Source: Planctomycetota bacterium (GTDB lineage Bacteria; Planctomycetota; PLA2; JAEUHO01). Taken from it: a stretch of DNA of 64,000 nucleotides. Every line of letters starts with the position of its first letter. Within the stretch, counting starts at the first letter, position 1. The translations under genes were made by a program, and so were the position numbers. Below, in pieces: positions 2,361-52,747 of the stretch. Under the pieces are notes generated by a model that ran no database searches, was not told where the DNA came from, and saw only the letters and a program-made list of their open reading frames with translations. The DNA is taken from NCBI GenBank assembly GCA_965222115.1, contig CBDCTJ010000001.1, forward strand, positions 448,001 through 512,000. Reading direction: 5' to 3'.

Positions 2361-2520
2361 GCGGTCGATTACGCCAGCGGAATCGCCACGAACCGTGCAA
2401 ACTCGCGGTGATGTCGAGTAGGGTGGCCGTTCGCGCGTGATGTCTCGGGACGTCGCGCGCGCTATTCGAAGGAGCCTGCACGTCGATGATTTGGCGTGCC
2501 GGGCCAGAGAGGATGTCTCG

Positions 2521-3006
2521 ATGAAGAACCGTTCCTTTGCACCCCTTGTGTGCATGTTGGGTGTCGCTGCCCTACTCGCTGCGTTTGCCGTGACGGGCAC
2601 CATGAAACCCGCCATGGGTGAAGGCGACGCCCCCGCCGTCAAGCCCGTTGCCTCCATCAAGTCCATCATGCACGCCAACAATGCCTACGAAGAAGAGGGC
2701 ACCGACAGCCTCTTCAAGATGGTGGACGCGTTTGTTGCGAGCAAGCCCGGCAAGGATCAAAAGAACGCCTGGACGCTTGCCCGTCACCGCGCATTGATGA
2801 TCGCCGAAGGGGGCAATCTCTTGTTGGCGCAAACGCCCATCCGCGGCGAAGCCAAATCGTGGAAAGAACACTCGGCTGCATTTCGCGATGAAGCCAAGAA
2901 GCTTTCCAAGGCGATTGCGATGCGCAACGTGGATAAGGCGGCCGCCGCCATTGCAACCGTCAAGAAGCGCTGCACAGCGTGTCACGACGCGCACCGTCCC
3001 CAGTAA
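2521..3006 (+). CDS. Periplasmic class II cytochrome c (c'/c556-like)
   Basis: Signal peptide, helical body, single C-terminal CTACH heme motif; AGAGGA upstream of ATG 2521. Confidence 0.8.
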   Translation: MKNRSFAPLVCMLGVAALLAAFAVTGTMKPAMGEGDAPAVKPVASIKSIMHANNAYEEEGTDSLFKMVDAFVASKPGKDQKNAWTLARHRALMIAEGGNLLLAQTPIRGEAKSWKEHSAAFRDEAKKLSKAIAMRNVDKAAAAIATVKKRCTACHDAHRPQ

Positions 3007-3063
3007 AGCAGTAAACGAACGAAACGCCACAAAACCATCTCGTTCTCATCGGACGAGTCACAC

Positions 3064-4377
3064 CTACTTTGCTGCGCGCGCTTCGAGCCAGGCTCGGAGC
3101 GCGCGTATTTCGTTGGCGTCCCCCACCAAGGGCGGCATGGTCGACCAAATGGTGGGCACGCCCGGTTTCTGTTTCGCAAGCGAATCGACGAAGATGCCAA
3201 TGCGATTCGCGTTCCATCCGTCTAGCAACCCACGCAACCCTCGGTAGCCGTCTCGTGTGTGGCATACGGCACATTGATGGCGGTACATCGCTTCACCCAC
3301 CGCGAATCGATCACCCGTTTCCAACACGGGCGCATCCACGGTGTGACTGAGGAAGCCGTCGCGGCGAAAACGCTCAATGTCATCCACATAGATCCCATTG
3401 GCGTACACCACGTCTCGTATCACAAACGGTTTGCGTAGCATCTCGCGAATCGCCTCGGCACTGCCAAAGCCCACAAAGCCCAGTACAACCAACACCACCG
3501 CACACCCTCGCGGCAAGCGTGTTGGCCGTCGAAGCGCTAGCACGATACCGGCAAACAACATGATCAACAGGGCGCTGCCCCCCAACCACCACAACGTACG
3601 CAGCCAAGGCACGCCCCCTTTGGTGCCGGCCATCGACCGAGAAAGCACGTCGCGCGCGCCCGCAGGCAGTGCTGCATGCGTAAACAACAGGCCCACGAGC
3701 GATACAATCAACCCCACGGCGATCCACCGGCCCGATCGTGACCACAGCAGTGTTCGATCGTCATCGTCGGATACGGCTCTAGCCGTCACAAGTGCAAAGC
3801 AGCCGGCGACAAACGTGCACGCGCCCAACCGCATGATCGTGGTCGGAACGTACGTGGGGTTGAACAATCCATCCCACACGCTCTTGGTGTCCACCCATCG
3901 TCCAGGCGACAGCATGAACGACAGAATGCCATTGATAATGAGCAACGTCACGATGCTGGCGCCGGCGTACAACCATCCCACACGCATATGATCACGCGGA
4001 GTCAATCGATCCCACGTCTTGTAATACACAATGGCGGTGGCCAACTCGATGAGGAAGAAGCACCACTCGGCTGCCCAAGCCCACACAAAGACTCGAATCA
4101 GCTCAAAGATGCCGTCGGGCGAAGCGAGCCCCACGACGAACCAAATCGCCACACCCGAGAGCGCGCCGAAAACGAGGGTAAGCAGAACAAAGAAACGCGC
4201 GTGACGTCGTGCATGGTCAAGAATGCCGGGACGGTTCAACCTGTGGCCGAGGCGCTCGGTGGTTACGAGATACAACCCACCCCCCACGGCGAAGTGCGCC
4301 ACGAACACGTGGGTGATCGCAATGATGGCGATAAGTCCCGGAACACCGAACCCCTCCGCGGTAAAGCGCGGAAACAT
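3064..4377 (-). CDS. Cytochrome bd oxidase subunit I (CydA)-like membrane protein fused to a C-terminal cytochrome c
   Basis: THVFVAHFAVGGG, GALSGVAIW, WAAEWCFFLIE, EAIREMLRKPFVI motifs; CAVCH with distal MPP; ATG 4377 overlaps the upstream TGA. Confidence 0.8.
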   Translation of the reverse strand: MFPRFTAEGFGVPGLIAIIAITHVFVAHFAVGGGLYLVTTERLGHRLNRPGILDHARRHARFFVLLTLVFGALSGVAIWFVVGLASPDGIFELIRVFVWAWAAEWCFFLIELATAIVYYKTWDRLTPRDHMRVGWLYAGASIVTLLIINGILSFMLSPGRWVDTKSVWDGLFNPTYVPTTIMRLGACTFVAGCFALVTARAVSDDDDRTLLWSRSGRWIAVGLIVSLVGLLFTHAALPAGARDVLSRSMAGTKGGVPWLRTLWWLGGSALLIMLFAGIVLALRRPTRLPRGCAVVLVVLGFVGFGSAEAIREMLRKPFVIRDVVYANGIYVDDIERFRRDGFLSHTVDAPVLETGDRFAVGEAMYRHQCAVCHTRDGYRGLRGLLDGWNANRIGIFVDSLAKQKPGVPTIWSTMPPLVGDANEIRALRAWLEARAAK

Positions 4378-5423
4378 CAAGACACCTCGCGTTTTGCGTG
4401 GGCGCGTCGCCACATCGAAGCGAGCCAAAGCAACGCGAAAGTCGCAACCAAGAAGCAGGCGAGAAAGAACAACAGGGCACCGTCGTGCGGGCCGGTAGCA
4501 CTCGACGACACGCCCTGCGTCTGCAACTGGAGGTCGCGTGTACGAAATCGAAGGTGTGTCCCTGCGGCAATGGCGAGAAACGCAGTGAGGGCAGTGAGCC
4601 ACGCCAACGATCGACGCCAGTGCCTCACCGCAAGCCATCCCAGCATGGGTACCGCAAGGGCTAGGCCGGCGGACACGTAGAGCATCGGGCCGGCACTTGC
4701 AAAGTCGCCTTCACGCGAGATGCGCTTTCCAATGCCCAGCAGTCCCGTCACGACTGTCAACACCGCAAGTGTTACGAGACCAAACTGTGCCATGGCGTGG
4801 TCTGCACGCTTCGATCGTATGCTCCCAGAAACTCCAACAACAATGAACCACACGGAACCAAACGCGATCGCTCCGACGATCTCGTGCGCCCAACGCAGAG
4901 GGGCTCCGGTTCGCGAAAGCGCCAAGATCCACCCCGGACGATGGCCCTCAGCGGTGATTGTGGCAATGACATCCGGGCGTTCGGAAAGCGTGACATTGGC
5001 CGCCAGAACAAATGAAAACAGCAGCAGTCCGCATAGAGGAATCGCACGCAGTACGGGCCCGGGTGTCTTTCCGCCATGAACGACGCCCTCGCAGGCGTAG
5101 GCCGCGTAGTAGCCAATCATTAACGCAAATACGGCCAGCAACCACGGCCAACCTGCCAGAACACTCGAAGCGTAAAACCGCTCGCCATGCATCAGTTGCA
5201 AGAAGAGCAGCGGCGCCACGCCGAGCGTGATGGTGAACGACATGGCCACGGGCAAGGACGTCGCACTCCTCGACAACATTGCGTCTGCGAATCGACCACG
5301 CGCCATGGCCAATGCAAAGGCCAGCGCGACCATGACATTCATGGCCGCCGTGTGCAGCGTGAACGTAACCGCGTGAAGGACCTCCACGATCCAAAGCGGC
5401 GCAGGAATGGGCGACATGGCCAT
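4377..5423 (-). CDS. Polytopic membrane protein, probable second (CydA'-like) subunit
   Basis: About 9 hydrophobic segments; TFTLH..MN and ITLGVAPLLFLQ motifs; translationally coupled (TGATG) to the CydA-like gene. Confidence 0.65.
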   Translation of the reverse strand: MAMSPIPAPLWIVEVLHAVTFTLHTAAMNVMVALAFALAMARGRFADAMLSRSATSLPVAMSFTITLGVAPLLFLQLMHGERFYASSVLAGWPWLLAVFALMIGYYAAYACEGVVHGGKTPGPVLRAIPLCGLLLFSFVLAANVTLSERPDVIATITAEGHRPGWILALSRTGAPLRWAHEIVGAIAFGSVWFIVVGVSGSIRSKRADHAMAQFGLVTLAVLTVVTGLLGIGKRISREGDFASAGPMLYVSAGLALAVPMLGWLAVRHWRRSLAWLTALTAFLAIAAGTHLRFRTRDLQLQTQGVSSSATGPHDGALLFFLACFLVATFALLWLASMWRRAHAKREVS

Positions 5424-5663
5424 GAACAGCTCTCTCTGCGTGCTCTCTCTGCATGGATCGAACTCGAATCGTGGCAACGTGTCATGAGCAACGACATCGT
5501 GCGACGTTTTAATCGAGACTCACGCGCCACCGCATCCAGTGACGAGCAAAAAACAGACGGAGACGGCCCACCATTGACGCACAATCGAAAGGAATCACAC
5601 GGGCACCGTCGCGCATTCGCGGTGTTCGTGCATCGTGCGCAGCATCGATCGGAAGGAAGCTAC

Positions 5664-7016: not shown

Positions 7017-7808
7017 CTAGGACGCCTTCTTCTTGACCTTCTTGGGCGTGAGCTTCCAGAGTTCGGACTGCTTCTTACGAATATCGGCAAGTTGCTTGCG
7101 AATCTCGGCTTGCTGCTTCTTCACCTTCGCCATCTTCTTGTCGTTGTCCTTCATGCGACCAACTTTACCGTTGATCACCTTCTCGGCATTGGCGAGCTGA
7201 TCTTGTTCGGTGAGAAGATTGAGGTGCTTCTTGACGACCTTGTCGAGCTTCTCTTTGAAGACCTTACTAGCCACCTTGCCCATGGCCTTGTAGAGCTTGC
7301 TGGTCTTGAGACGACCCTTTTCGAGCACGGAAATCTTTACGTTGACAGGGTCAATCAACAAGATGCGCGGTACGGCCTTGCCGTTGCCCTTGAGAATTGG
7401 GTCGGCGGCCACGGCATCGGGATGCATCTTTATGCGGCGGAAGGCCTTCATGCCAAGGGCGACCCTCTCGTCCTTGAAGACAACGCCTTCAAGCTTCTCA
7501 ACGCCATCACAGGACGCCGCGTCATCGCAGACGTAGACGATGATGGGACGATCGCTCCAACGAAGCGGTGACTGACTTGCAGCTTGCTTGGCTTCGGCCG
7601 ACTCGGCGGAATCGCCGGTGGTGATGCTCTCTTTCTTGGCAGCTACGGCCTCGGCCGACTCCCACTTAATCTCTAGCGCCGCCAGACTGGCGGACGAACG
7701 ACCATTGCATCAGCCCGCTTCAGCGGCGGGGCTTAGGAATGCTGGCACACAGAGTGCGGCAAGCATCGCGAACGCTGTAAGCGTGCGGGCGCTACGAAGG
7801 TGCGTCAT
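7017..7808 (-). CDS. Predicted secreted selenoprotein, thioredoxin-like fold plus basic coiled coil (paralog 1; 263 aa, Sec at codon 33)
   Basis: GGAGA RBS; MTHLRSARTLTAFAMLAALCVPAFLSPAAEAG-TGA(7710-7712)-CNGRSS... in frame with the 7017-7451 ORF; RPIIVYVCDDAASC and VPRILL motifs; SECIS-like hairpin. Confidence 0.8.
7679..7693 (-). promoter_or_regulatory. Candidate bacterial SECIS hairpin (paralog 1)
   Basis: CCGCC-AGUCU-GGCGG at +17 to +31 after the UGA; loop resembles the E. coli fdhF SECIS loop. Confidence 0.65.
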
Positions 7809-7893
7809 GTCGGTTTCTCCATTACATCAATCCGCCCGTCGCAAGCGCGTCCCCGGACGGATCGCGGGATGCTTGCGCCTAGCAGGGTTTACG

Positions 7894-7932
7894 AAAAAGC
7901 GCGGGCGCTCGTCCTGAGACGAACGCCCGCGC
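7894..7932 (-). terminator. Rho-independent terminator after paralog 2
   Basis: GCGCGGGCG/CGCCCGCGC stem with inner stem, followed by T5 on the minus strand. Confidence 0.7.
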
Positions 7933-7940
7933 GTGAGGAT

Positions 7941-8744
7941 TTAGGACTTCTTGGATGCTCTCGGTGTGAGCTTCCAGAGTGCAGACTCCATTTCGCGGAG
8001 TTTCTTCTGCTCGCCTTCCAAGACCTCAAGCTTCTTCTTGAGCTTCTTGGCGGACGATGAATCGGAATCCTTCGCCGCGGTCAGACGCTGGCGCGCCTGC
8101 TGAACACGGGGATGAATCTTGTCGTATTCGCTGAGAAGCTTGACGTGCTTCTTCACTACGCCATCGAGCGACTCCTTGTAGAAAGGCTTCGAAATCTTTT
8201 TCATGGCGTTGTAGATGGGGCGGATATCTACGCGCTTGCTTTCAAGCACGACGACCTTATCTCGGGCCAAGTCCATAATGATCAAGCGAGGATCTGCCTT
8301 GCCGTGACCCTTGAGTAGGGATTCATCTGCGGCATCTTCGGGAGACATACGAACCATACGGAAGGCCTTGGACGCCAAGGCGACCTTCTTGTCCTTCCAC
8401 ACTTTTTCTTCGAGGCGCTCAGCCACTTCGCAGGTGCCGAGTTCGTCACATACCAGCACCATCAAGGGGCGCGAACGAAGTTCTTCGAGCTTGGCGTCGG
8501 CAAGCTTCTTAGCCGCCTCTGCAGACTCGTTATCGACACCTGTAACTTCACCCGTCTCGGGCATGAGTCGCTCAACGCGATCCCACTTGACTTGCATAGC
8601 CCGTTGGGCATCGGGTGAAGGAGCTGAACTACCACGCGACCGACCGCCGCCACCACCACCGGGGCATCAGCCAGCTTCGGCGGCGGGACTCCACATAAAC
8701 AAGGAAAGCGATAGGGCGAGGCCCGCAGTAATCAGCTTCTTCAT
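7941..8744 (-). CDS. Predicted secreted selenoprotein, thioredoxin-like fold (paralog 2; 267 aa, Sec at codon 26)
   Basis: GAGGAG RBS; MKKLITAGLALSLSLFMWSPAAEAG-TGA(8667-8669)-CPGGGGGGRS... in frame with the 7941-8597 ORF; RPLMVLVCDELGTC and DPRLII motifs. Confidence 0.8.
8636..8650 (-). promoter_or_regulatory. Candidate bacterial SECIS hairpin (paralog 2)
   Basis: GCGGC-GGUCG-GUCGC at +17 to +31 after the UGA, same register as paralog 1. Confidence 0.6.
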
Positions 8745-8786
8745 TCGGACGAACTCCTCTTGTGAAAAATGAGCGGAACCTCTAGG

Positions 8787-8820
8787 ACATGGGACGAGCC
8801 GATGCGTGTGTAGGTTTCCC
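8787..8820 (-). promoter_or_regulatory. ECF sigma-type promoter motif GGGAAACC-N16-CGTCCCATGT upstream of paralog 2
   Basis: Same two boxes and spacing recur at 51731-51764; GAAAC/CGTC match generic ECF -35/-10 elements. Confidence 0.6.
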
Positions 8821-9128
8821 ACGAATCTCCCGATCGGCAGATTCTGCTGGACGCACGCACCTCTTCGTTCAGCCGCCAAAAAGCTAAACGTCGAGTAAGG
8901 CCTGATTCCATCGCAGATTCTACACGTTCGTGCCCCGAATTCGCGTGATCGCAAGCCGTCTACCGGGCTCAAGGTCCCCGTTTCTCGGCCTTTCCGGGCT
9001 AATGAGCGGTCAGGGGCGTGAATTTTCGAGTATTTGGTCCCCATTTTCGGGGACCTATAGCGACTCGGACCTGTCAGTACGTCAAAAGTGCGAAGGACTC
9101 GACAGGAACAATAAGAAGGGCCTACGTC

Positions 9129-12100
9129 TTGAAACATACAAACAAACTCGTAACATACCGAGCAACGGCGGTGACAACGATCTGTGTCCTGGCACTGTCA
9201 ATCGCATCGCTCGCGCCAACGACGCAGTCCCATGCAGAAGAACATGCCGAAACGCTTCTGCTTCAACAGCCTGCGATGAACAAGACGCATGTCGTATTTG
9301 TCTATGCGCGAAACCTATGGATCGTTCCACGTGCCGGTGGAACGGCGCGCGCGCTAACCTCGCATGTGGGAACCGAAACACGCCCCCGCATTTCCCCGGA
9401 CGGCTCCACGCTTGCCTTTAGTGCCGAATACGGTGGCAACTATGACGTCTACACGATGCCGATAACCGGCGGTACGCCCACGCGCCACACGTGGCATCCC
9501 GGCATGGACCTTGTGGAGGGCTGGCATCCGAACGGAAAGCAGGTCCTCTTTACAAGCCGACGCAGAAGCGGTACGCCGGTGTCGAAGGCGTATCTGACCG
9601 TAGAAGCCGCCGGCAAGGCTGCAACGCAACGATTCGTAGAACCGCTGCCCTTACCACGTGTTGGCCGCGCAGCATTCGACACCACCGGAAAGCGCATTGC
9701 CTATGCACCAATTCGAGACGCGTTTCGCACGTGGAAGCGCTATCGCGGCGGGCAAACGTCGCCCATGTGGATCTACGACACGGAGACGCATGAGGTGGAG
9801 GTCGTGCCCCACGAAAACGCAAGTGACACCATGCCATGTTGGATTGGCGATGAGCTCTACTTTGCGTCTGATCGCGCTGACCAGATGAACGCATACCGCT
9901 ACAACGCAGAGGCAAAGTCGGTGGAGGCGCTTACTGAGTTTACGCGTGACGGATTCGGCGTTCGCACCATGACCGCAGGACCCGATGGACTTGTCTTTAC
10001 CCGGGGCGGTGCAATCCACATCCTCGACCCGAAAACCAAAGCGGTCACACGACTTCGCATTCATGTGCCCACCGACGGGCTCGCGCGGCTCCCACGCTGG
10101 GAAAAGGCGAGTAAATCGATTCACAATGGAGACGTGTCTCCCAACGGCAAACGGGCTGTACTTGAGGTGCGCGGTGAAATTGTAACCGTGCCTCGCGAAC
10201 ACGGGGGACCCCGCTACTTAAGTCGAAGCGAAGGCGCCAACGACCGATTCCCCACGTGGAGTCCCGACGGAAAACGGATTGCGTGGTTCTCCGATCGAAG
10301 CGGCGAGTATCAATTGCTGGTTCGCGATCGACTCGGAGAGAAGCCCCCCAAGGCCTATGCCATCAACGACACCGCGGGCTACTACGCAGATCCGCAATGG
10401 AGTCCGGACGGCAAGCACATTGCGTTTTCCGATAAGTCCAACCGCGTCTTGGCTTTGAAACTTGCGGATGGCTCACTCAAGACCATTTCGCATAGTCAGG
10501 GCTCGCTTGGGTATTGGCGTCCGTATGCGACGTGGTCACCCGATAGCAAGTGGCTTGCGGTAGAAGAGAAGAATCCCACCACAGCCTACGGTGGCATCAA
10601 ACTCTATGAGCTTGCCACCGGTGATTCAAAAACGATCACAGATGCATTCGGCGATTCGCACTCGCCAGCATTCACCCGCGACGGCAAACACCTTTACTTC
10701 TGCTCAAGTGCACAAACGGGCCCGAATCAATTCGGACTCGACATGAGCGCACACCGCATGAAGTACGCCAAGAGCAATATGTATCTGGTCGTACTCAAAA
10801 AGGACGGCAAGAACCCCTTAGCACCGAAGATCGACGAAGGCATTGACAAGGACGATAAGAAAGGAAAGAAAAAGAAGAAAGCAAAAGACGAAGAGAAGCA
10901 AGACGGTGAAGGAGAACAAGACGCCGCCGATAAGGAAGACAAAGAAGAGAAGAAGGAAAAGCGCGACGACGAAGAGAAAGAGGACACGTCAGACGCTTCC
11001 AAGAAAAAGAAGGAAGACAAGCCGTCGGTGGATCTGGAGGGAATCGAAGATCGAATCTTGGCTGTACCGGGTTCAAGGGGGAACTACTTCGGACTTGGCG
11101 CTACCAAATCAAAGATGCTTTACTTGGAATGGGGCGAGGGTCGCAAGCGAAGTCTCCGCGCCTACGACCCCAAGACCAAGAAGCACAAAAATCTCGTATC
11201 CGGCTGCACGCGGTACGCCATCAGTAAGAAGGGCACGACCGTGCTCTTCAAGAAGGGTGATGCATGGTCCTTGATGGACGAGAACGGCAAGTCCGAAAAG
11301 AAGCTACCCACGTCAAGCGTTTCCGTCCGCGTGGACCCGGCCAAGGAGTGGCGCCAAATCCTTCGCGAAGTCTGGCGCATTCAGCGCGACTTCTTCTATG
11401 ACCCCAATCTGCACCATGTGAATTGGGATGCCATGTGGGAGCGCTGGAGTGCGTTCTTGCCCTACGTACAGCATCGCGAAGATCTCAATGTGATCCTGCA
11501 GGAGATGATGGGCGAACTGTGTTGTGGCCACGAATACGTGGGCGGTGGCGAGATGGATGAAGCCGAAGAAGGACCGCCCGTGGGTCTCCTTGGCGCCGAC
11601 ATCGTTCGTGCTGACGACGCATACGTCATCAAGAAGATCTACCGCGGCCAAAACTGGAATCCAGGGCTGCGATCACCGCTCACTGAACCGGGCATTGATG
11701 TGCGCGTTGGAGACATCGTGCGCTCCGTCAACGGCCGACTCGCATCCGACAGCGTAAACATCTACGCGCTCATGGAAGGCACCGCCGGTGTGCCCACGCG
11801 CATCACGTTTTCACGTCCCGACAGTACAGAAAAGGAGCGGACGTTTACGATTGTTCCCATCGCAAGCGAAAACCGCTTGCGTCGCCGCGCGTGGGTGGAA
11901 GCCAACCGCAAACGCGTAGACAAACTCTCCGGCGGTCGGCTCGCCTACATTTACATGCCCGATACGGGCCGTCGTGGACTCGCGGCTTTTGATCGTGATT
12001 ACTACAGCCAACTCGACAAGGAAGGCGTGGTCATCGACGAACGCTTCAATGGCGGCGGCAAGATTGCGGACTACGTCGTCAATGTCCTCGCGCGTAAGGT

Positions 12101-12536
12101 GCTCTGCTACTGGATGAATCGCGAAGGGTGGGTTGGACGCACGCCGTTCGGCACCATCGAAGGCCCCAAGGTAATGATCATCAACGATCGCGCCGGATCG
12201 GGCGGCGACGCCATGCCGTGGTTGTTCCGCAAACAGGGCGTTGGCAAGCTAGTAGGCACGCGCACGTGGGGCGGCCTTGTGGGCATATCCGGCTATCCTG
12301 ATCTCATGGATGGCGGATTCGTAACTGCCGCGAGCTTTGGCATTATGGACACCGACGGCAAGTGGATTATAGAGAACGAAGGCGTCACACCTGACGTCGA
12401 GGTTCAGCAGTGGCCGCGCGACGTCATCAAGGGAGGCGATCCGCAATTGGAGAAGGCGGTGAAACTAGCGCTCGAAGCACTAGAAAAATCGCCACGGCGC
12501 AAGCCCCCTGTGTATGTCAAGCCCGCGGCGCGATAA
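9129..12536 (+). CDS. Tricorn-like protease (S41 family; propeller repeats, PDZ, catalytic domain)
   Basis: Signal peptide; repeated P.WSPDGK units; DERFNGGG, AGSGGDAMPWLF (catalytic Ser), GTRTWGG, ENEGVTPD, DPQLEKAV; start approximate. Confidence 0.92.
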   Translation: MKHTNKLVTYRATAVTTICVLALSIASLAPTTQSHAEEHAETLLLQQPAMNKTHVVFVYARNLWIVPRAGGTARALTSHVGTETRPRISPDGSTLAFSAEYGGNYDVYTMPITGGTPTRHTWHPGMDLVEGWHPNGKQVLFTSRRRSGTPVSKAYLTVEAAGKAATQRFVEPLPLPRVGRAAFDTTGKRIAYAPIRDAFRTWKRYRGGQTSPMWIYDTETHEVEVVPHENASDTMPCWIGDELYFASDRADQMNAYRYNAEAKSVEALTEFTRDGFGVRTMTAGPDGLVFTRGGAIHILDPKTKAVTRLRIHVPTDGLARLPRWEKASKSIHNGDVSPNGKRAVLEVRGEIVTVPREHGGPRYLSRSEGANDRFPTWSPDGKRIAWFSDRSGEYQLLVRDRLGEKPPKAYAINDTAGYYADPQWSPDGKHIAFSDKSNRVLALKLADGSLKTISHSQGSLGYWRPYATWSPDSKWLAVEEKNPTTAYGGIKLYELATGDSKTITDAFGDSHSPAFTRDGKHLYFCSSAQTGPNQFGLDMSAHRMKYAKSNMYLVVLKKDGKNPLAPKIDEGIDKDDKKGKKKKKAKDEEKQDGEGEQDAADKEDKEEKKEKRDDEEKEDTSDASKKKKEDKPSVDLEGIEDRILAVPGSRGNYFGLGATKSKMLYLEWGEGRKRSLRAYDPKTKKHKNLVSGCTRYAISKKGTTVLFKKGDAWSLMDENGKSEKKLPTSSVSVRVDPAKEWRQILREVWRIQRDFFYDPNLHHVNWDAMWERWSAFLPYVQHREDLNVILQEMMGELCCGHEYVGGGEMDEAEEGPPVGLLGADIVRADDAYVIKKIYRGQNWNPGLRSPLTEPGIDVRVGDIVRSVNGRLASDSVNIYALMEGTAGVPTRITFSRPDSTEKERTFTIVPIASENRLRRRAWVEANRKRVDKLSGGRLAYIYMPDTGRRGLAAFDRDYYSQLDKEGVVIDERFNGGGKIADYVVNVLARKVLCYWMNREGWVGRTPFGTIEGPKVMIINDRAGSGGDAMPWLFRKQGVGKLVGTRTWGGLVGISGYPDLMDGGFVTAASFGIMDTDGKWIIENEGVTPDVEVQQWPRDVIKGGDPQLEKAVKLALEALEKSPRRKPPVYVKPAAR

Positions 12537-15145: not shown

Positions 15146-17941
15146 CTACCCACCGCAACTGGCGCCGCAACTCGCTTCGTCGTCCGGCAACTTACGAACG
15201 TCCTCGCCCTTAAGTCGCGCTCGCTCTACTTGCAACTCGGAGAGCTTCTTTGCCAACTCGATGCGCTCTGACTGATTCTTCGCATTGGATAACGCGCTGT
15301 AGATCTCCTTGAGCTTCGCATCGATCTCTTGGATTCGCGTTGTGTCTGCTTCAGAAAACGGCGCCATACGAACCTCGGCGCTGCCCTGGCCACCCCGCGC
15401 ATCGATGCTGAGTCCTCGCATACCCTTATGCGTTGCCGATATCGAGAGTTCGATATCTGGGATGCCAACGAACGTGGCCGTGCCCTCATGACTTACGACT
15501 TGTGTGCTCTCGATATGCCATGAGTCTTCGCTCGCTCGAGGGTCCTTGGCGCCGAGCGTCACTTTGGCGCCAGAAATGGGTTCGCCATGCTCGCCTACAA
15601 CGCGAACGCGAAGCTCGTGTGCGTCTCGAAGCTGGAGGTTGAGCTGTGGTCGGGTCGAGCTCTTTTCGATCTGGTCGTCATCGTCCTCCAACTCGAGCGA
15701 CGCGCGGCTCACGGCGAATCCGGCGAGGCTCACCGTTGCGGTTAGTTTGCCCGTGGGCACGTTGTGCACCACGGCTGTACCGTCGGCGCGCGAAACGATC
15801 TCGGCGAAGTGGCCGTCGCCAAAGTAAGAAAACGCATCCCATTGAACTTCGTCATCAGCGACTACGTTCACTTTGATGGTTGCACCACTCGCGGCCTCTC
15901 CATCCGGCGTCTTCACAGAAATGACAACTTGGTGCCCACGACTCATCACCAAGTCTGGTGTCCGGACACCGGCGCCTTGTTTCAATGCGAAGAGTTCGGT
16001 CTTGGCATCTACGAATCCCTGGCAGCGCGCAATCACGCGTACGTTCGCCCCGGCGGCGCCCGCCTCCAACAAGTAGTCTCCGTGACTGTTGGTGATGCTT
16101 GTGGACGTCCCCATTAACATACTGACGTAACCGTACGTACTGTCCGAGGACGAAACGCGCACTTGAACGCCGCGCAGGGGCTTGCCTTCAGGTCCAACGA
16201 CGCGCCCTCGAATAACCGAGGCCGGCAATAAAACGATGTCACTCTCAATATCCTCATGTGAGTCTTGCCCACCGATTGGGGCCCCAAACGTGCTTGCCTT
16301 AGGATCCGCGACGAAGCCAGGAGCCGATGCCAAGATTCCGATGACGGGCGGACTCAAGCCCTTGAAGACATACGCTCCTTGCGCATTGCTAGTCACAGTC
16401 GAAGCGCCCATTCGGCTCATAACAACGACCTTTGCGCCCGCGATGGGGTTTCCATCTGCATCCGATACGCACCCCGACACAGAAATGCCTCTACGAACGA
16501 AAAACTCGAGCGTTGTCTCTGGGCGCTTGAACGTGACGTCCTTGGGACCCGAAAGCATCGTGTACTTCTTTGCCCCATCAATCTGTACCAGCGCGGGGTT
16601 CATCGCGGGGGAAAACGTAGCGCGCCCATAGTCGGGGTGGCTCACAAGCAACATGTTTAGCGTACCCGGTCTAGATACGTACTGAGCTTCACCTTGCGCA
16701 TCCGTAACAACATTGCCAAAGGCATAGTCGCCACGACCCATGCCATTCCCCTCGGCACTCACAACGGAAACGAAAGCGTTCGAAATCGGGTCTTTGGAGT
16801 GTGCATCAAGAATTCGCAGCGTGACGCGCACGCCACCCTTTAGTACGAACTCCCGCGACGCCTTCCAGGTCTTCGCCTCAAAGAACGTTGTCGGATACTC
16901 GGGCGACTTGGCAATCAATACGAGATCATCTGCGGCAGGCGGCGATTCGATGACAAACGACCCGTCCGAGCGAGTATCGGCAAAGCGACGCCCGGAATAG
17001 ATCGACACTGGGTTATTGCTGTCGAAACACGCAACACGCCCGCGTGAAATTCCACGACCCTCTCCGTCTACAAGCCGACCACGAAGGGCCTTCTGCGTCG
17101 CCAATTGAATACGTACCCTGCCTCCAGCAGCGCCATGAGATGTGAGTACAACGTCTTTGCTACTGAGCCGATAGCCAGCGCGACGCGTAACCAACGTATA
17201 CGGTCCCGGGCTTAGCCCCTCGATTCGAAATCGTCCTTTCGCATCGGTCGTGGCCTGCTTGAGCGCAACGGAATCTTTGTCCAGATTTCGAATGAGATCT
17301 GTCATCTGAAGCGCCAGAGCAACCATCGAGCCCTTGCCTCGACGTACGTCAATGGTGGCGTGCTCGATTGGCTCACCCGCGCCGTCCACAACGACGCCCT
17401 CAAGCACGCCCTTTTCACCGAGCCAAAGCGTTCCAACATCGGTATGGCCATTGGCCTCGACCGATACACCGGGCGCCTGTGCATCGAGCCCTTCGGTTGA
17501 CGCCACCGTGAGTAGGTAGTTCTTGCCTGAAGGCACGTCGGCGAACGAGAACGTGCCATCCTTCGAACTCACTGTCGATTGCTCGACTGTCTCATTGCCG
17601 TAGCCAGTGCCTCGAAGACTCACCGCCGCTCTCGCCACGCCGTCAGATGTTCCGAACCGCATCAAACGCCCCGTCACAGTTCCCTTCCCAACTCGATCTT
17701 CACGCGCGAGCCCAAACAACACGGGCCCACTACTCGTGGCGTCGTCAACAGCAGCGTCGCGTTCATCCGACTCTTCATCACTAAGCGCTTCGTTGTCTCC
17801 AGTCTCCTCCGATGCACTCCCCCACCAACCCATTTCCCGCGGGATGTCCGTGATCCATAGCAGTCCACCGATGGCAAAAACCGCTAGCAGAATCCAAAGT
17901 ACCTTGTGCACAACGCGCCTCCCGTTCAATCCGTCCAGCAT
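15146..17941 (-). CDS. Large multi-domain carboxypeptidase-regulatory-like surface protein (copy A)
   Basis: N-terminal TM; repeated G.VVD..G.PI.GA units; ends SCGASCGG; paralog of 19305-22076. Confidence 0.8.
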   Translation of the reverse strand: MLDGLNGRRVVHKVLWILLAVFAIGGLLWITDIPREMGWWGSASEETGDNEALSDEESDERDAAVDDATSSGPVLFGLAREDRVGKGTVTGRLMRFGTSDGVARAAVSLRGTGYGNETVEQSTVSSKDGTFSFADVPSGKNYLLTVASTEGLDAQAPGVSVEANGHTDVGTLWLGEKGVLEGVVVDGAGEPIEHATIDVRRGKGSMVALALQMTDLIRNLDKDSVALKQATTDAKGRFRIEGLSPGPYTLVTRRAGYRLSSKDVVLTSHGAAGGRVRIQLATQKALRGRLVDGEGRGISRGRVACFDSNNPVSIYSGRRFADTRSDGSFVIESPPAADDLVLIAKSPEYPTTFFEAKTWKASREFVLKGGVRVTLRILDAHSKDPISNAFVSVVSAEGNGMGRGDYAFGNVVTDAQGEAQYVSRPGTLNMLLVSHPDYGRATFSPAMNPALVQIDGAKKYTMLSGPKDVTFKRPETTLEFFVRRGISVSGCVSDADGNPIAGAKVVVMSRMGASTVTSNAQGAYVFKGLSPPVIGILASAPGFVADPKASTFGAPIGGQDSHEDIESDIVLLPASVIRGRVVGPEGKPLRGVQVRVSSSDSTYGYVSMLMGTSTSITNSHGDYLLEAGAAGANVRVIARCQGFVDAKTELFALKQGAGVRTPDLVMSRGHQVVISVKTPDGEAASGATIKVNVVADDEVQWDAFSYFGDGHFAEIVSRADGTAVVHNVPTGKLTATVSLAGFAVSRASLELEDDDDQIEKSSTRPQLNLQLRDAHELRVRVVGEHGEPISGAKVTLGAKDPRASEDSWHIESTQVVSHEGTATFVGIPDIELSISATHKGMRGLSIDARGGQGSAEVRMAPFSEADTTRIQEIDAKLKEIYSALSNAKNQSERIELAKKLSELQVERARLKGEDVRKLPDDEASCGASCGG
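17608..17749. repeat. Near-identical direct repeat, copy 1 (copy 2 at 21743-21884)
   Basis: 142 bp with 3 mismatches by manual alignment, offset 4135 bp. Confidence 0.85.
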
Positions 17942-18057
17942 AGACTCGATTCAGCGCATGGCTCTTGGATAGACATCTGACAACGCGTAAGGGTGTCGCT
18001 CTACTCTTCCTCACAACCGAACGCGGGTATCCTTGCAGGTAGAGGAGGACGCCGTTC

Positions 18058-19284
18058 ATGTTCGATCGTTTTACTGACAGGGCGCGCAGAGCGATGGGGG
18101 AGAGTCGGCGCGCTGCCCAACAGCTAGAGAACGACCACATAGGCACGGAGCACCTGTTATTGGGCGTGATCGAGGTATCGAATGGCGTTGCGGCTGCAGT
18201 ATTCAAGAATTTGAAAGTAGATACGGCAAAACTAAAGGAACGCGCCATCGCACTTGCCCCGGAGCCCAACGCAGAGATCGGCTTCGAGGGTCAACTCCCT
18301 TTCACGCCACGTGCCAAGAATGCACTCAACTACGCGTTGCATGAGGCCGTTGAATTGGGCCACACCTACCTTGGTACCGCACACTTGGTATTGGGACTCC
18401 TTCGCGAGAGCAAGGGCGCCGCGTATCAAGCGCTTTCCGAAACTGGAATCCACGTCGATCGTGCACGCCAGGAAGTACGTCAACTCCTAAGCTCGGAGGC
18501 GTCGATCGGGGTAGATGAAACTGCCCCGCATGCAGATGGCGACACGCAAGAGGCCCATGAGTCTCGATCCCATCACCATGAACTGCAACAGATTTTGCGA
18601 CAAGAACGAAGACTCACGGATTCGTTTGGTGATGGATTTCCGAAGGTGATTGCAGAGGCCCGAAAGGCCGCCCGGCGATTTCGACACGAGTATCTGTGCA
18701 CCGAGCATTTGCTACTGGGAATCGCAAAGTGCAAAAGTGCGGTTGGCCGTGACATTCTCAAGCATTGCGGAATCGCGGCGCGGGACGTATCGAAGCATCT
18801 GCGGCACATCGAGCTTCAACCGCCGGACAAACTCGGGATCGACGAGATCGAGTTTAGCGCAGACGACCCCATCGGCTATACCGTCCGCGCAGCAAACGCG
18901 TGCCGGTTCGCGCATGAAGAAGCCGAGAATTGGAGTCTTGCTGACCCGAGCACAGCACATCTCTTGTTGGGCCTCATCATCGATAGGCGATCCAGCGCCG
19001 CGAAGGCCTTGAATGACTTGGGCATGCCCGTAGGTGACATTCGAAGGGAGATTGCTGCCACGCTGTATGGTCATTCCACACCTAGCGCCGACGAAACAAG
19101 TGCCACAGATAGCAAGGAAAAGCTAAAAGCCATGGAAGACCGACTTGCGAGCATGCTTGGCGCACTTGAAGTGCGCATCCTCACGCTCGAAGACCAACTT
19201 CGCTCGCACGGCAAGGAAATTGCGGATCTTCGGAAGCAACTGCGCAAACACGACGAAGATAATGCGCCGACAACTGACGAATGA
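18058..19284 (+). CDS. Protein with two Clp N-terminal (repeat) domains and a coiled coil, no AAA+ module
   Basis: MFDRFTDRARRA, IGTEHLLLG, LPFTPRAK, LGTAHLVLG, LCTEHLLLG, STAHLLLG; no Walker A; GGAGG RBS. Confidence 0.85.
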   Translation: MFDRFTDRARRAMGESRRAAQQLENDHIGTEHLLLGVIEVSNGVAAAVFKNLKVDTAKLKERAIALAPEPNAEIGFEGQLPFTPRAKNALNYALHEAVELGHTYLGTAHLVLGLLRESKGAAYQALSETGIHVDRARQEVRQLLSSEASIGVDETAPHADGDTQEAHESRSHHHELQQILRQERRLTDSFGDGFPKVIAEARKAARRFRHEYLCTEHLLLGIAKCKSAVGRDILKHCGIAARDVSKHLRHIELQPPDKLGIDEIEFSADDPIGYTVRAANACRFAHEEAENWSLADPSTAHLLLGLIIDRRSSAAKALNDLGMPVGDIRREIAATLYGHSTPSADETSATDSKEKLKAMEDRLASMLGALEVRILTLEDQLRSHGKEIADLRKQLRKHDEDNAPTTDE

Positions 19285-19304
19285 ACGGCACGTGACGCGA
19301 GTCG

Positions 19305-22076
19305 CTAACCGCCGCAGCTCGATTCCACTTCGTCAGAAAAATCGTGCCTCGGCACGCCCTCGAGTCGCGCTCTCTCGTCTTTCAATTCCACCATCCGCGT
19401 TGATAGTTTGCTTCGTTCTTCATTGGCCATTGCGCTGCCGTACGCTTCTTTGATCGTCTTGAGCTCGGCATCGATCGCCTTGATTCGGGCGGCGTCGATT
19501 GGAGATATGCGCGTCAATCGAATTTCAGCGCTTCCCTGACTGCCATGGGCGCGCATCTCTGCGGGTCGCATTCCCTCTCGCTCAGCCCAGACACCGATTG
19601 CAACCTGCGCGGTGTCAGCAAACGTTGCATTGCCTCCCTTGTCTGTGATCGCGCTACGTGACGAATACCGTCCCAGGATGACCAAATCGTCAGCAATTTC
19701 GTGGATGGATACACTTGCCCCCTTGACGGGATCTCCTTGTTCATCGAGCACGCGAACGCAAAACTCGCGGACTTCACGTAACTTGAGTTTGAGCCGTTGT
19801 TGCGTCGTACTCGCCGAGTCTTCGGCCGAGCCTTCTTCTAGTTTGAGCGATGCGCGACCTGACGCAAATCCCGGTAGACTGGCTATTGCCGTGATCGTAC
19901 CTGCGGGCAAGTTGCTTACTACCGCGGTTCCATCACCTCCCGAGAGTCGATCGGCAGTGGTTTCGCTGTACCCTGAGATGTGATCCCATCCCACGTCGTC
20001 CTCAGCGCTGACGTCAACTTCAATCGCCGCGCCCCTCGCGGGTTCACCGGAAGGTGTCTCGACATAGAGAGTGATTTCCCGGCCCCGACGCATCGCCAAC
20101 GTGGGTGCCTTCACGTCGGCACCCGGTGTCATCTTAAACGTCTCGGTTCGCGCATCTAAGAATCCTTGGCAGCGAGCAATCACGTGCCCCTCCATCCCCT
20201 CGGCGCCGCCCTCAATCGTGTAGTCGCCCTGGCTATTCGTAATGCTTGACGGGCCGCCGGTAAGCACATCCACATAGATGGACATATCAAACGACAGGTT
20301 CATACGCACGTGAACGCCGCCAAGTGGCTTGCCACCGGGTCCCACGACCCGACCCTGTATGACTGCTGACGGAACCAACACGATATCGTACTCGCTGCTT
20401 TCGGAACCGATTGGCTCGCCAGTGCCGGATCGCCGCGGAGCCTTGAAGCTCGAAACATAGCCAGGCGCCGAGGCCGTGAGCATTGCGCCAGACGGATTCA
20501 GTCCCTTCAATTCGTACTCGCCACGCTCATTACTCAATGCACTCGATATGCGTTGCCACATATCACCAAACGCAGCGACCTTTGCGCCAGCAAGAGGATT
20601 GCCGTCGGGATCTACGACTCGACCTGATAGCGCGATACCGGGACGAACATGAAACTCAAGCGTCGTTTCCGGCCCCTTAAGGGTCATGTCTTTGGGACCT
20701 GTGAACATCGCGTTGCCAGCTTCCGCGACTTGGCTCACGTTCTTGGAGAACTGGCCACGTCCGTAATGAGGGTGACTCACAAAGAGCATGCCCAGCTCAC
20801 CTGGCTCGGCCAAGAACTCGGCTTCGCCTCGCGCGTCGGTGATGGCACTACCAATGACCACATTCCCCTCCTTCGTGCCCGCGCTGCTACCGCACATGGC
20901 GGAAAGCACGGCGCCTTGCACCGGTACCCCGGTGTCCCATTCCAACAGACGCAACGTCACGCGCACGCCCCCTTCGAGTACAAACTCACGAGTCCCCTCC
21001 CACGTATCGACACCAAGGAGAGCCGTAGGGCGTCCGGGAGCGGTAGCAATGAGGCTCAGGTTCTCCGCAGCGGGCGGCGACTCGATAACGAACGTTCCAT
21101 CGTTTTTCGTATGCGCGAAGCGACGACCGAAAAATAGCGAATGCATGTTCTTGCTCTCGAAGCACGCCACACGACCCCATGCAATACCGCGCCCCATCTC
21201 GTCCACAAGACGACCACGCAGGGGCACTTGCGCAGTCAGTCTAACGTGAACAGTTCCCCCGGCGGCGCCACCGGACATGAGTACGATGTCTTTGAAGTGA
21301 ATTCGATAGCCTTCGCAGCGCGTTTGCAAAATCAATGGACCCGGATTGAGTCCTTCAACGCGGAAACGGCCCATGCGATCTGTGATTGTATGTTTCAGTG
21401 CGACTGTGTCCCTGTCCAATGTGGAAACCAACTCGGACATCTGTGACGACATGGCAAGAACCGAACGGCCGCCTCGAAGCACTTCAACAGTCGCGCCCTC
21501 AATCGGGCGGTCAGCTCCATCTACGACGACGCCCTCTAGTATGCCCTTCTTACCAAGCCAGAGCGTTCCAACTTCAGTCGTCTGGTTTGCTTCTACCGAA
21601 ACACCGGACGCTTGTGCGTCTAATCCTTCGGTAGACGCCACACTGAGTAGGTAATTCTCGCCTGCGGGTACGTTAGAGAACAAGAACGTGCCATCCTTCA
21701 AACTCATCGTCGATTGTTCGACAGCCTCTTTGCCATAGCCCATGCCTCGAAGACTCACCGCCGCTCTCGCCACGCCGTCAGATGTTCCGAAACGCATCAG
21801 ACGCCCCGTCACAGTTCCCTTCCCAACTCGTTCTTCACGCGCGAGCCCAAACAACACGGGCCCACTACTCGTGGCGTCGTCAACCGCGCCATCACTGACG
21901 CGGGACTTTTCATGAAGAAGCGCGTCATTCTCTTGCCCGTTCTCGGACGAGCTTCCCCACCATCCCATCTGTCGGGGAATTTCAGTCAGCGATAGCAACG
22001 CGACAATGGCTAGAACCGCGAGTAGAACCCAAAGCAACCTGTGCACGACGCGCCTCCCGTTCAACCGGCACAGCAT
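19305..22076 (-). CDS. Large multi-domain carboxypeptidase-regulatory-like surface protein (copy B)
   Basis: Collinear paralog of 15146-17941; ends ESSCGG. Confidence 0.8.
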   Translation of the reverse strand: MLCRLNGRRVVHRLLWVLLAVLAIVALLSLTEIPRQMGWWGSSSENGQENDALLHEKSRVSDGAVDDATSSGPVLFGLAREERVGKGTVTGRLMRFGTSDGVARAAVSLRGMGYGKEAVEQSTMSLKDGTFLFSNVPAGENYLLSVASTEGLDAQASGVSVEANQTTEVGTLWLGKKGILEGVVVDGADRPIEGATVEVLRGGRSVLAMSSQMSELVSTLDRDTVALKHTITDRMGRFRVEGLNPGPLILQTRCEGYRIHFKDIVLMSGGAAGGTVHVRLTAQVPLRGRLVDEMGRGIAWGRVACFESKNMHSLFFGRRFAHTKNDGTFVIESPPAAENLSLIATAPGRPTALLGVDTWEGTREFVLEGGVRVTLRLLEWDTGVPVQGAVLSAMCGSSAGTKEGNVVIGSAITDARGEAEFLAEPGELGMLFVSHPHYGRGQFSKNVSQVAEAGNAMFTGPKDMTLKGPETTLEFHVRPGIALSGRVVDPDGNPLAGAKVAAFGDMWQRISSALSNERGEYELKGLNPSGAMLTASAPGYVSSFKAPRRSGTGEPIGSESSEYDIVLVPSAVIQGRVVGPGGKPLGGVHVRMNLSFDMSIYVDVLTGGPSSITNSQGDYTIEGGAEGMEGHVIARCQGFLDARTETFKMTPGADVKAPTLAMRRGREITLYVETPSGEPARGAAIEVDVSAEDDVGWDHISGYSETTADRLSGGDGTAVVSNLPAGTITAIASLPGFASGRASLKLEEGSAEDSASTTQQRLKLKLREVREFCVRVLDEQGDPVKGASVSIHEIADDLVILGRYSSRSAITDKGGNATFADTAQVAIGVWAEREGMRPAEMRAHGSQGSAEIRLTRISPIDAARIKAIDAELKTIKEAYGSAMANEERSKLSTRMVELKDERARLEGVPRHDFSDEVESSCGG
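21743..21884. repeat. Near-identical direct repeat, copy 2
   Basis: Matches 17608-17749. Confidence 0.85.
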
Positions 22077-22200
22077 AGACTTATCTCAGAGCGTTTGCTC
22101 GGGGAACGCCAACCCTTCGTGCGTGGGCGCAATAATCAAGCCATCAGACGCATCCCCCAACGAGTACGGGTACGCTCGCCGCAGAAAGGACCTACCGATC

Positions 22201-22662
22201 ATGTTCGACAGCTTCACAGACAGGGCGCGCAAGACGATGGGCGAAGGCAGACTCGCCGCACTGAAGATGGGTCACGACTTCATTGACACCGAGCACATAC
22301 TGCTGGGCCTCCTCGCAACGGAGGGATGCGTCGGTATCGCCATGCTGGAGACACTGAGAGTAGACACATCGAAATTGGAAGAACGCGTGAAAGCGCTCGT
22401 CTCGCCGACTGGCGCATGTCCTGATTCCAGGTCACAACTTCCGTTCGTTTCGGACGCAAAGAGCGCGCTTGAGTATGCACTCCAGGAAGCGTCCGGCATG
22501 GGGCACAACTACATTGGAACGGAACATCTCTTGCTTGGCATGCTACGAGCAGAGGATGGAATCGCCTACAAGGCGCTGAACGCCATGGGAATCAATGCAA
22601 CCGATGTGCGAACGGAAGTGATTGAGCTTGTGGGCTTTGGGCCGGACACAGACTCGGACTGA
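22201..22662 (+). CDS. Stand-alone Clp N-terminal domain protein (153 aa)
   Basis: MFDSFTDRARK, IDTEHILLG, GHNYIGTEHLLLG; stop directly after the domain. Confidence 0.85.
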   Translation: MFDSFTDRARKTMGEGRLAALKMGHDFIDTEHILLGLLATEGCVGIAMLETLRVDTSKLEERVKALVSPTGACPDSRSQLPFVSDAKSALEYALQEASGMGHNYIGTEHLLLGMLRAEDGIAYKALNAMGINATDVRTEVIELVGFGPDTDSD

Positions 22663-38343: not shown

Positions 38344-38367
38344 CCTCTCGGGAGACCACGAAAAGCT

Positions 38368-40984: not shown

Positions 40985-41092
40985 ATCGCCTTGACCCTCG
41001 CGAACGCGTGGCCGACATTCTCGCTCGCCGCGTAGCTTGTGTACTAAGCCATGTCGGTAGCGCGGGTGACGCTCTCGGCCCGGAGGTTGACC

Positions 41093-42064: not shown

Positions 42065-42072
42065 CGCAATTT

Positions 42073-51988: not shown

Positions 51989-52747
51989 ATGCGCAAGACG
52001 CTCAGCCTTGGCTTGGCAGCGGTACTCGCCCTGCCCGCCCTCATGTTTGCCTTCGGCCCCACTGCAAATGCAGGCGGTGGCTGCTGAGGCTTCTCCCCCG
52101 CCGCCAACGCCGTGTTGCGTTGCAAGTGGAAGAACGCCGAGAAAGTGGCCCCCGATACCGACGTTAGCACCGGCGACACCGCCGAAGAGGCCGAAGCGAA
52201 GGCCGAGAAGAAGATGGCGCCCAAGCCCATCATGGTCTACGTCACAGACGGCGCAGACAACGCTGAGCACACCAAGATCGAGAAGGTCGTTCTCATGAAC
52301 GAAGAGATCTCGATTCTCATGAATAACTTTGACTGCCTAAAGGTCAGCCCCGAAGTGGCTAAGGACGACCCGCTCTTGAAAGAGCACGGTAAGGCCTGCC
52401 CTCGCTTCATTATCTTCAACCGCGACTACAGCAAGCCCAAGGTCTTCGAAGGCAAGTCCATGAAGACCAAGAAGGTCTTGACCGCGCTCAAGAAGGCTGC
52501 CAAGCACGCCTACAAGACCCCCATCGACAAGTACGTCAAAGAGATCCGCAAGCTCGTCAACGAGTACAACAAGATCAATGGCGCGATGAAGGTCATTGAA
52601 GGCAAGCGGAGCCGCGGCGACCTCAGCAAGAAGGACAAGAAGAAGCTTGCCGAGCTTGAGCAGGCTCAGAAAGACGCTGAAGCCAAGGAAAAGAAATTCC
52701 TCACCTATGAGCTTCGCGTGAAGGAGAAGGCCAAAGCCGAAGGCTAA
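51989..52747 (+). CDS. Predicted secreted selenoprotein, thioredoxin-like fold (paralog 3; 252 aa, Sec at codon 33)
   Basis: GGAG RBS; MRKTLSLGLAAVLALPALMFAFGPTANAGGGC-TGA(52085-52087)-GFSP... in frame with the 52112-52747 ORF; KPIMVYVTD and DPLLKEHGKACPRFII align with paralogs 1 and 2. Confidence 0.8.
52105..52122 (+). promoter_or_regulatory. Candidate bacterial SECIS hairpin (paralog 3)
   Basis: CAACGC-CGUGUU-GCGUUG at +18 to +35 after the UGA, with G at loop position 2. Confidence 0.5.

Follow-up and report, generated by a model that had tools for sequence, protein, structure and literature searches.

We analyzed a 64,000-nucleotide stretch of DNA from a Planctomycetota bacterium (NCBI GenBank assembly GCA_965222115.1, contig CBDCTJ010000001.1, positions 448,001 to 512,000 of the forward strand; hereafter, the window), in which two tandem genes on the minus strand, paralogs 1 and 2, each carry an in-frame UGA codon followed by a short RNA hairpin. 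Our data suggest that these hairpins are very likely bacterial selenocysteine insertion sequence (bSECIS) elements of a family of exported selenoproteins, for which we infer selenocysteine (Sec) insertion, SelB binding, export, and a redox role. The UGA is conserved in the family and gives way to Cys in homologous proteins, one form of the gene (i.e., the short form, to which paralog 1 belongs) shows constraint on both codon choice and base pairing, and the model of the paralog 1 protein has a thioredoxin fold. In addition, the hairpins of paralogs 1 and 2 are not homologous to each other. What is new here is the protein family, as the RNA element follows known bacterial SECIS rules.

A gene family with a conserved in-frame UGA

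Both hairpins proposed in a first-pass annotation of this DNA are present as written, on the minus strand behind the UGAs, with GUC at +23 to +25 in each (positions are counted downstream from the UGA). That of paralog 1 consists of CCGCC (+17 to +21), the loop AGUCU, and GGCGG (+27 to +31), and that of paralog 2 of GCGGC, GGUCG, and GUCGC, including a G-U pair. Both UGAs are in frame and lie between a leader ending in Ala-Glu-Ala-Gly and a Cys codon. A further family member in the window (paralog 3; 34% identical), located beyond the coordinates of the first-pass annotation, has a hairpin whose sequence is unrelated to the other two. The features are as follows:

7017..7808, minus strand: paralog 1 (short form), 263 amino acids with the UGA read as Sec; GGAG 8 nt upstream of the ATG
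7716..7808, minus strand: predicted signal peptide of paralog 1, ending in Ala-Glu-Ala, with cleavage predicted from this pattern
7710..7712, minus strand: in-frame UGA of paralog 1 (putative Sec33), followed by a Cys codon; homologue P0034 has Cys at this site
7679..7693, minus strand: putative SECIS hairpin of paralog 1 at +17 to +31, with the conserved core GCC-A-GUY-U-GGC at +19 to +29
7894..7932, minus strand: intrinsic-terminator-like hairpin (15 pairs) and T run between paralogs 2 and 1, a consensus match only
7941..8744, minus strand: paralog 2 (long form), 267 amino acids with the UGA read as Sec; architecture as in paralog 1
8667..8669, minus strand: in-frame UGA of paralog 2 (putative Sec26), followed by a Cys codon
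8646..8660, minus strand: poly-Gly insertion of five codons in paralog 2, which pushes the ancestral downstream sequence 15 nt farther away and provides the 5' arm of the hairpin
8636..8650, minus strand: candidate SECIS hairpin of paralog 2 at +17 to +31, loop GGUCG; weak and non-homologous to that of paralog 1
51989..52747, plus strand: paralog 3, 252 amino acids; signal peptide, then Gly-Gly-Gly-Cys-Sec (i.e., the reversed order)
52085..52087, plus strand: in-frame UGA of paralog 3 (putative Sec33), directly preceded by a Cys codon
52105..52122, plus strand: candidate SECIS of paralog 3, a 6-bp stem at +18 to +23 and +30 to +35 with the loop CGUGUU at +24

For comparison at the DNA level, one scan of GTDB genomes yielded 16 loci (L002 to L017) from 91 candidates, all of them titled as Planctomycetota metagenome-assembled genomes (MAGs). 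The 16 loci come from 13 MAGs and include no orthologs of paralogs 2 and 3. The window and these loci hold 23 family genes, and leaving out L017, which is cut at its 5' end, 22 have a readable N-terminus (3 from the window and 19 from MAGs). An in-frame UGA is present in all 22, as Gly-UGA-Cys in 21 and Cys-UGA in 1, and neither TAG nor TAA ever occupies the site. A clear signal peptide precedes it in 19 of them, the exceptions being L013_2272 (Ns), L014_11073 (which looks broken), and L015 (no ATG in range). The long-form copy at ~11000-11500 of L014 carries an in-frame stop 16 codons ahead of the UGA and stops after 142 residues, which indicates a pseudogene or an assembly error. Tandem pairs of family genes occur in L005, L009, L013, L014, and the window.

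At the protein level, a profile search returned 382 representatives (50% clustering, E ≤ 0.001), the more distant of which lack Cys or were unchecked for UGA; sequence-level counts refer to the 150 that were listed. Homologues of full length that combine a signal peptide with Cys at the UGA site include P0026, P0034, P0064, P0072, and P0083, among others, and P0034 (31% identity) aligns its Cys onto the UGA. More distant homologues retain the signal peptide and have no Cys. Many entries are truncated: 43 of the 150 listed representatives start with M, L, or V followed by A or R, 4 to 6 residues ahead of a conserved Trp, as do 27 of the 82 matches from a second search, none of which contains U. 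An NTG codon within the hairpin (+25 to +27; 7685-7683 on the minus strand, and in homologues) is the start picked by gene callers, and therefore many database proteins begin with MA, LA, or VA shortly before the conserved Trp. Indeed, the NCBI entries P0174 and P0189 are hypothetical proteins that start at this codon inside the hairpin. Close homologues of paralog 3 (P0011 to P0015) are likewise predicted from a start downstream of the UGA position.

With the UGA read as Sec, the paralog 1 protein consists of a predicted signal peptide (a leader with a basic start and a hydrophobic core, KD10 2.62), Gly-Sec-Cys, a helix, a thioredoxin-fold domain, and a C-terminal coiled coil. Its structural model (predicted local distance difference test [pLDDT] score, 85.8) shows the thioredoxin fold followed by long helices, and the fold is matched best by DsbD-gamma (1vrs_D; Z 11.9, root-mean-square deviation 2.3, 105 residues aligned). 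The start of the active-site helix carries neither CxxC nor UxxC, with the putative Sec located ~60 residues upstream. Of the 22 genes, 12 have a C-x5-C motif after the first strand and 8 lack it, the display being incomplete for the other 2; all 22 retain a Pro-Arg motif. None of the three paralog proteins has an above-cut-off match in NCBIfam 20.0 or Pfam; paralog 2 matches PF13899 (Thioredoxin_7) weakly, below the cut-off, and weak coiled-coil matches in both databases (E 0.003 to 0.7) were disregarded.

Side observations concern the codons ahead of the UGA. The Glu three codons upstream (7721-7719 and 8678-8676 on the minus strand, and in L002 to L016) is encoded by GAA in 15 of the 16 genes that have it, and Glu before Ala elsewhere in the gene bodies is encoded by GAA in 15 of 45 cases. 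Possibly, this preference avoids a GAGG ribosome-binding site before the out-of-frame AUG contained in UGA-UGC.

RNA constraint and turnover of the hairpins

Ortholog codons and pairing reveal that the hairpin region of the paralog 1 type is clearly constrained at the RNA level beyond the protein. Codons +19 to +30 of the 12 short-form genes read GCC (12/12), AGT (12/12), TTG or CTG (6 each), and then GCG or GCC. The AGT codon makes up 3% of 213 Ser codons in the bodies of the same genes and 13.6% in the long frames of the window. The Leu codon at +25 is never CTC (0/12), whereas CTC is found in 6 to 11 of the 12 genes at the 8 other invariant Leu columns. The free loop base +25 has changed 4 or more times on the tree, and +24 and +27 have never done so. 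In an alignment of 13 genes, 85.6% of 104 stem cells are paired, as compared with 77.0% in shuffles (0 of 500 reach the observed value) and 30 to 49% for slid partners, and 11 stem cells have changed on both sides (e.g., G17-C31 in L002 and G18-C30 in L011).

The first-pass annotation had proposed that RNA structure, not protein, is under selection here. Its first half holds for paralog 1 in view of the invariant AGT, the restriction of Leu to TTG and CTG, and the compensatory pairs; its second half is not supported, as Cys homologues mostly keep Arg-Ser. They mostly do not keep Ser-Leu-Ala (both read by eye), a loss to be expected if the Ser-Leu-Ala codons serve the RNA. Collectively, only the Ser-Leu-Ala codons look RNA-driven.

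Folding supports the elements to different degrees. The paralog 1 stem pairs with a probability of 0.97 to 1.0 in 3 of 5 fold windows and of 0.21 in two 60-nt windows without upstream context; that of paralog 2 reaches 0.25 to 0.47 in short windows and 0 to 0.01 in longer ones. We also folded the sequences with +1 to +11 excluded, after the 11-nt spacer reported for E. coli fdhF (PMC8659212). With this masking, the minimum free energy (MFE) fold is the hairpin for both paralog 1 (p 0.99) and paralog 2 (p 0.90, -8.1 kcal/mol), and the paralog 3 hairpin forms with p 0.99. The z scores against shuffles are -1.88 (masked) and -0.96 (+1 to +60) for paralog 1, and -1.05 (masked) and -2.47 (+1 to +60) for paralog 3. 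Among synonymous variants of paralog 1, only 0.3 to 1.5% match the native sequence in folding.

Across the family, 19 of the 22 genes have, under masking, a hairpin of at least 4 bp with G(G/U) in the first two loop positions and p ≥ 0.5, a strict rule that 212 of the 1,944 TGA triplets of the window also satisfy; when any loop G is accepted, the count rises to 21 of 22 (the background was computed for the strict rule only). The gene at 2272-2319 of L013 is the only family member without a 4-bp G-loop hairpin.

The first-pass annotation had described the hairpins of paralogs 1 and 2 as covarying. This is not borne out: in both protein and DNA alignments, the Gly-Arg-Ser codons of paralog 1 (+7 to +15) fall under +22 to +30 of paralog 2, i.e., the compared stem columns are non-homologous because of the 15-nt poly-Gly insertion in paralog 2. 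The insertion is also the reason why the encoded peptides differ. Compensatory covariation between the two paralogs was therefore rejected, and their identical register would reflect independent arrival at a distance that works rather than compensatory change.

The other long forms point to the same kind of turnover. In 7 of them (insertions of at least 2 codons), the old hairpin has moved downstream, and the displaced Ser codon is AGT in 3 and AGC in 4. All 8 long forms have either a G-loop hairpin starting at +19 to +28 or the shifted original. The loops are GGUC in L005_8485 and L013_3269, AGGUA in L010, UGGAA in L012, and AGAGY in L009_10995 and L014_11073, with the shifted original in L006. 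On a tree of weak support (4 of 19 branches starred), short forms and long forms switch with each other 5 or more times. The covariance model R1, built from 13 short forms and run on the window and the loci, recovers the genes it was trained on as well as L006 and the displaced homologous hairpins of long forms; paralogs 2 and 3 were not matched at E ≤ 5. Five further weak UGA-like R1 matches were inspected and revealed no convincing gene, and no other convincing gene with a UGA plus Cys was found in the window and loci beyond the family.

The suggestion in the first-pass annotation that the two hairpins may define a consensus for the lineage is not supported, and a single lineage covariance model was rejected, given that R1 misses paralogs 2 and 3. 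Because other insertion-bearing members carry different hairpins and the loops of the family start anywhere from +19 to +28 (with CGUGUU at +24 in paralog 3), the elements are instances of the general model for bacterial SECIS, turning over locally, rather than of one lineage consensus. What stands of the earlier proposal is that SECIS-like elements follow a conserved in-frame UGA.

By analogy with the mechanism established in E. coli, we envisage the following. While the UGA occupies the A site of the ribosome, ~11 downstream bases would be shielded, and the hairpin next to them would expose its G(G/U) loop. SelB carrying Sec-tRNA would bind the loop G(G/U), and Sec would be inserted. Export and cleavage behind Ala-x-Ala would then yield a product with Gly-Sec-Cys at its N-terminus (Cys-Sec in paralog 3), borne on a flexible arm that precedes a thioredoxin fold without a canonical CxxC. 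Paralog 1 would have retained the short-form hairpin. In paralog 2, the Gly-rich insertion may have displaced the old sequence, with a new hairpin arising at a working distance from the insertion and the old Gly-Arg-Ser codons. Most likely, the vicinal Sec/Cys pair would form an extracytoplasmic redox center served by the thioredoxin domain, soft-metal binding being the alternative. A vicinal Cys-Sec pair is also found in animal thioredoxin reductase, and the redox role is proposed by analogy with such pairs, among them those of SaoL and SaoC (bioRxiv 2022.07.06.499078).

Weighing alternative readings

Several observations count against reading these hairpins as SECIS elements. Most directly, no selA, selB, selD, fdhF, or tRNA-Sec was found in the 64-kb window or in ~226 kb of the 16 loci, where tblastn with E. 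coli SelA, SelB, SelD, and FdhF gave no match and ARAGORN gave no tRNA, which makes the Sec trait of the host a putative one. Sec machinery has been reported in other Planctomycetes lineages (PMC4807772), which is no proof for this one. The patterns used for the genome scan came only from the paralog 1-like subfamily, which biases the DNA sample, and the genes share ancestry. Compensatory events are few (1 to 2 per pair at +17/+31 and +18/+30), the covariation term of RNAalifold is only -0.05, and 38 of 500 shuffles match the count of pairs with double changes. In addition, the +18/+30 pair is broken in L005_7481, and L013_2272 (short form) lacks a 4-bp stem, having a G-A mismatch at +19/+29 with the AGUUU loop kept. 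The masking of +1 to +11 was chosen only after weak unmasked folds, and the hairpin detector is a rough tool, since it misses the true, bulged E. coli fdhF hairpin. Finally, the N-terminal arm of the paralog 1 model is of low confidence (pLDDT <50 at residues 24 to 33).

The weakest element is that of paralog 2, and one might accept the selenoprotein family and the paralog 1 SECIS while regarding the paralog 2 hairpin as a chance product of the G-rich Gly run, with paralog 2 being recoded through another structure, recoded poorly, or decaying. In agreement with this reading, which we consider rather unlikely, the hairpin is no stabler than shuffles (z +0.30 masked, +1.02 for +1 to +60), is equaled by 31.5% (unmasked) or 10% (masked) of synonymous variants, is absent from the +1 to +60 fold, contains a G-U pair, has no R1 match, and belongs to a gene on a long branch. 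However, it is the favored fold once +1 to +11 are masked, its GGUC loop recurs in L005_8485, L013_3269, and E. coli fdhF, the gene is intact, and a relative of 83% identity is also predicted to start after this point. The paralog 2 hairpin fits the family pattern and is probably functional. A further view, i.e., that the hairpins of paralogs 1 and 2 are homologous, with compensatory differences and a lineage-wide consensus at one register, could appeal to their common register and GUC: a 5-bp stem at +17 to +21 and +27 to +31 is possible at 18 of the 1,944 TGA triplets of the window, and adding G23-U24 leaves 3, of which 2 are paralogs 1 and 2 themselves (a post hoc figure, as the pattern was defined from these two). 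We regard this view as very unlikely, given the 15-nt offset in both alignments, the spread of loop positions, the different hairpin of paralog 3, and the failure of R1 to match paralogs 2 and 3; homology of the two hairpins is already largely refuted.

The UGA itself could be something other than a Sec codon. If it were read as Cys or Trp by a suppressor tRNA or through reassignment, with the hairpin stimulating read-through, this would accord with the absence of Sec machinery from the window and loci, and the Cys homologues demonstrate that Cys works at the site. This is highly improbable, as TGA, like TAG and TAA, terminates long frames in these DNAs. In the loci it ranks first or nearly so among the ends of such frames, and of 13 family genes with a read end, 3 finish with it. 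Genome-wide UGA reassignment was therefore rejected, and TGA is an ordinary stop here. The constraint on the loop G-U, reportedly read by SelB, and the Sec machinery of some other Planctomycetes lineages also argue against it. Likewise highly improbable, in our view, is that the UGA is a real stop at which a leader peptide ends, with a thioredoxin-like protein restarting at the NTG of +25 and the hairpin hiding this start. Gene callers do place starts there, including those of P0174 and P0189, but the codon is CTG, a poor start, in 6 of 12 short forms, the stop is never TAG or TAA in the 22 genes, the Cys homologues run continuously through the site, and a signal peptide severed from its cargo makes little sense. 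A conserved -1-frame open reading frame (ORF) from the overlapping AUG was rejected too, its length varying from 4 to 233 codons. Sec insertion directed by the hairpins thus remains our preferred reading.

Known systems, genomic context, and significance

In the bSECIS model (PMC13188914, Fig. 2A), the element lies in the coding region after the UGA, with a loop of 3 to 9 nt, a stem of 4 to 16 bp, a spacing of 16 to 37 nt, and an MFE of at most -7.5 kcal/mol; the first two loop positions include a G, mostly as G(G/U), and the loop pattern published there is N1-G-(G/U)-N-N2. Paralogs 1 (AGUCU at +22), 2 (GGUCG at +22), and 3 (CGUGUU at +24) agree with this figure in location, loop, stem, and spacing. 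Paralogs 1 and 3 also agree in favored fold and MFE, which paralog 2 (-8.1 kcal/mol) does only when masked and no better than shuffles. The short-form loop A-G-U-N-U fits the published pattern. Nothing essential differs from the model as given there: the short-form A-GUY-U at +22 to +26 is a family-specific instance, and the long forms use other sequences. The SECIS of E. coli fdhF (Rfam SECIS_2, RF01988) is similar in its loop, of the GGUC type in paralog 2, L005_8485, and L013_3269 or with G-U in paralog 1, and in having an upper hairpin beyond the reported 11-nt spacer (PMC8659212). However, the loop G-U lies 3 nt farther from the UGA here (+23/+24 versus +20/+21), and the hairpins have neither the bulged U nor the conserved lower stem. 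Rfam SECIS families gave no matches in the window and the 16 loci (none at E ≤ 10 in 7500-8800), whereas E. coli fdhF, the positive control, scores 87 bits for SECIS_2.

Among proteins, the thioredoxin-like selenoproteins in Table 1 of the same review (Trx UxxC, SaoT NF040730, Sec.1/Sec.2, Trx7/PDZ NF041199, and UGC-TlpA; PMC13188914) have the fold in common with our family and one Sec beside a Cys. In our family, by contrast, the putative Sec belongs to a vicinal pair at the mature N-terminus after a signal peptide and not to the CxxC position, and a coiled coil forms the C-terminus; none of the NCBIfam models of these proteins matched the paralogs at E ≤ 1. The CU/UC selenoproteins, as described in bioRxiv 2022.07.06.499078 and PMC13188914 (SaoL, SaoC, HgcA, MbdU, and KCU-star), resemble it in their vicinal Cys-Sec, truncated entries, and Cys-Cys homologues, and SaoC is exported. 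They differ in their folds, the SaoC pair is C-terminal, no common gene neighborhood was seen here, and both UC and CU occur among the paralogs of one genome here. The best structural matches are atypical thioredoxin folds (DsbD-gamma, AGR2/AGR3/ERp19, and UAS domains; Z ~10.7 to 11.9, identity 9 to 20%), and because many thioredoxin folds tie within 1 to 2 Z units, no function is drawn from them. The 119-row family table of the review (PMC13188914), compared by reading and not by sequence, lists no fitting name or motif. Literature searches, at the level of listings, returned no description of the family, and the main texts of the BSepDB (PMC13326102) and deep-Sep (PMC12013277) papers do not mention Planctomycetes. 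This putative exported thioredoxin-fold selenoprotein family of uncultured Planctomycetota is apparently undescribed, being set apart from the families of the review by name and motif and by the NCBIfam models.

No conserved redox or selenium operon was seen among 24 selected neighboring proteins, which vary between loci. A tricorn-type S41 protease gene divergently adjoins or lies near a family gene in three loci (9018-12536 of the window, plus strand; L008, 5266-8640; L016, 4409-7732), a GNAT acetyltransferase gene occurs in L003, L005, and L011, and an O-methyltransferase gene in L013 and L014. The strong terminator-like hairpin at 7894-7932 suggests separate transcripts or attenuation of the tandem paralogs. 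Elsewhere in the window, 2437-5477 holds a cytochrome c' gene, an adjoining gene for a cytochrome bd subunit I-like protein that has a c-type heme motif fused to it, and a gene for a second membrane protein. From the ORF translations, we take 15146-22662 to contain two tandem pairs of genes for large carboxypeptidase-regulatory-like repeat proteins and Clp N-terminal domain-like proteins, apparently a local duplication, and 30091-30924 (minus strand) and 37411-45191 (plus strand) to contain, presumably, an IS3-type transposase ORF, a phosphonate-type ABC transporter, and a biotin synthesis cluster.

Database members of this family are commonly annotated from a start inside the SECIS, whereby both the signal peptide and the Sec are lost. 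If our reading is right, a phylum that goes unmentioned in the main texts of a recent review of selenoproteomes and of a database paper would gain an exported selenoprotein whose vicinal pair at the N-terminus is unusual. The tandem pairs of short and long forms would provide natural SECIS variants for studying the spacing and loop needs of a non-proteobacterial SelB. More broadly, we consider it an evenly balanced proposition that this is a widespread, as yet unannotated exported Planctomycetota family with a CxxC-less thioredoxin fold whose mature N-terminus bears Sec-Cys or Cys-Sec, in which repeated tandem duplication and linker insertions forced the independent remaking of SECIS elements on several occasions, each time at +19 to +28, and in which Sec swaps between adjacent positions. 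If true, the family would amount to a natural experiment, one in which a bacterial SECIS is defined by its distance from the UGA and a loop G and is otherwise free to turn over.

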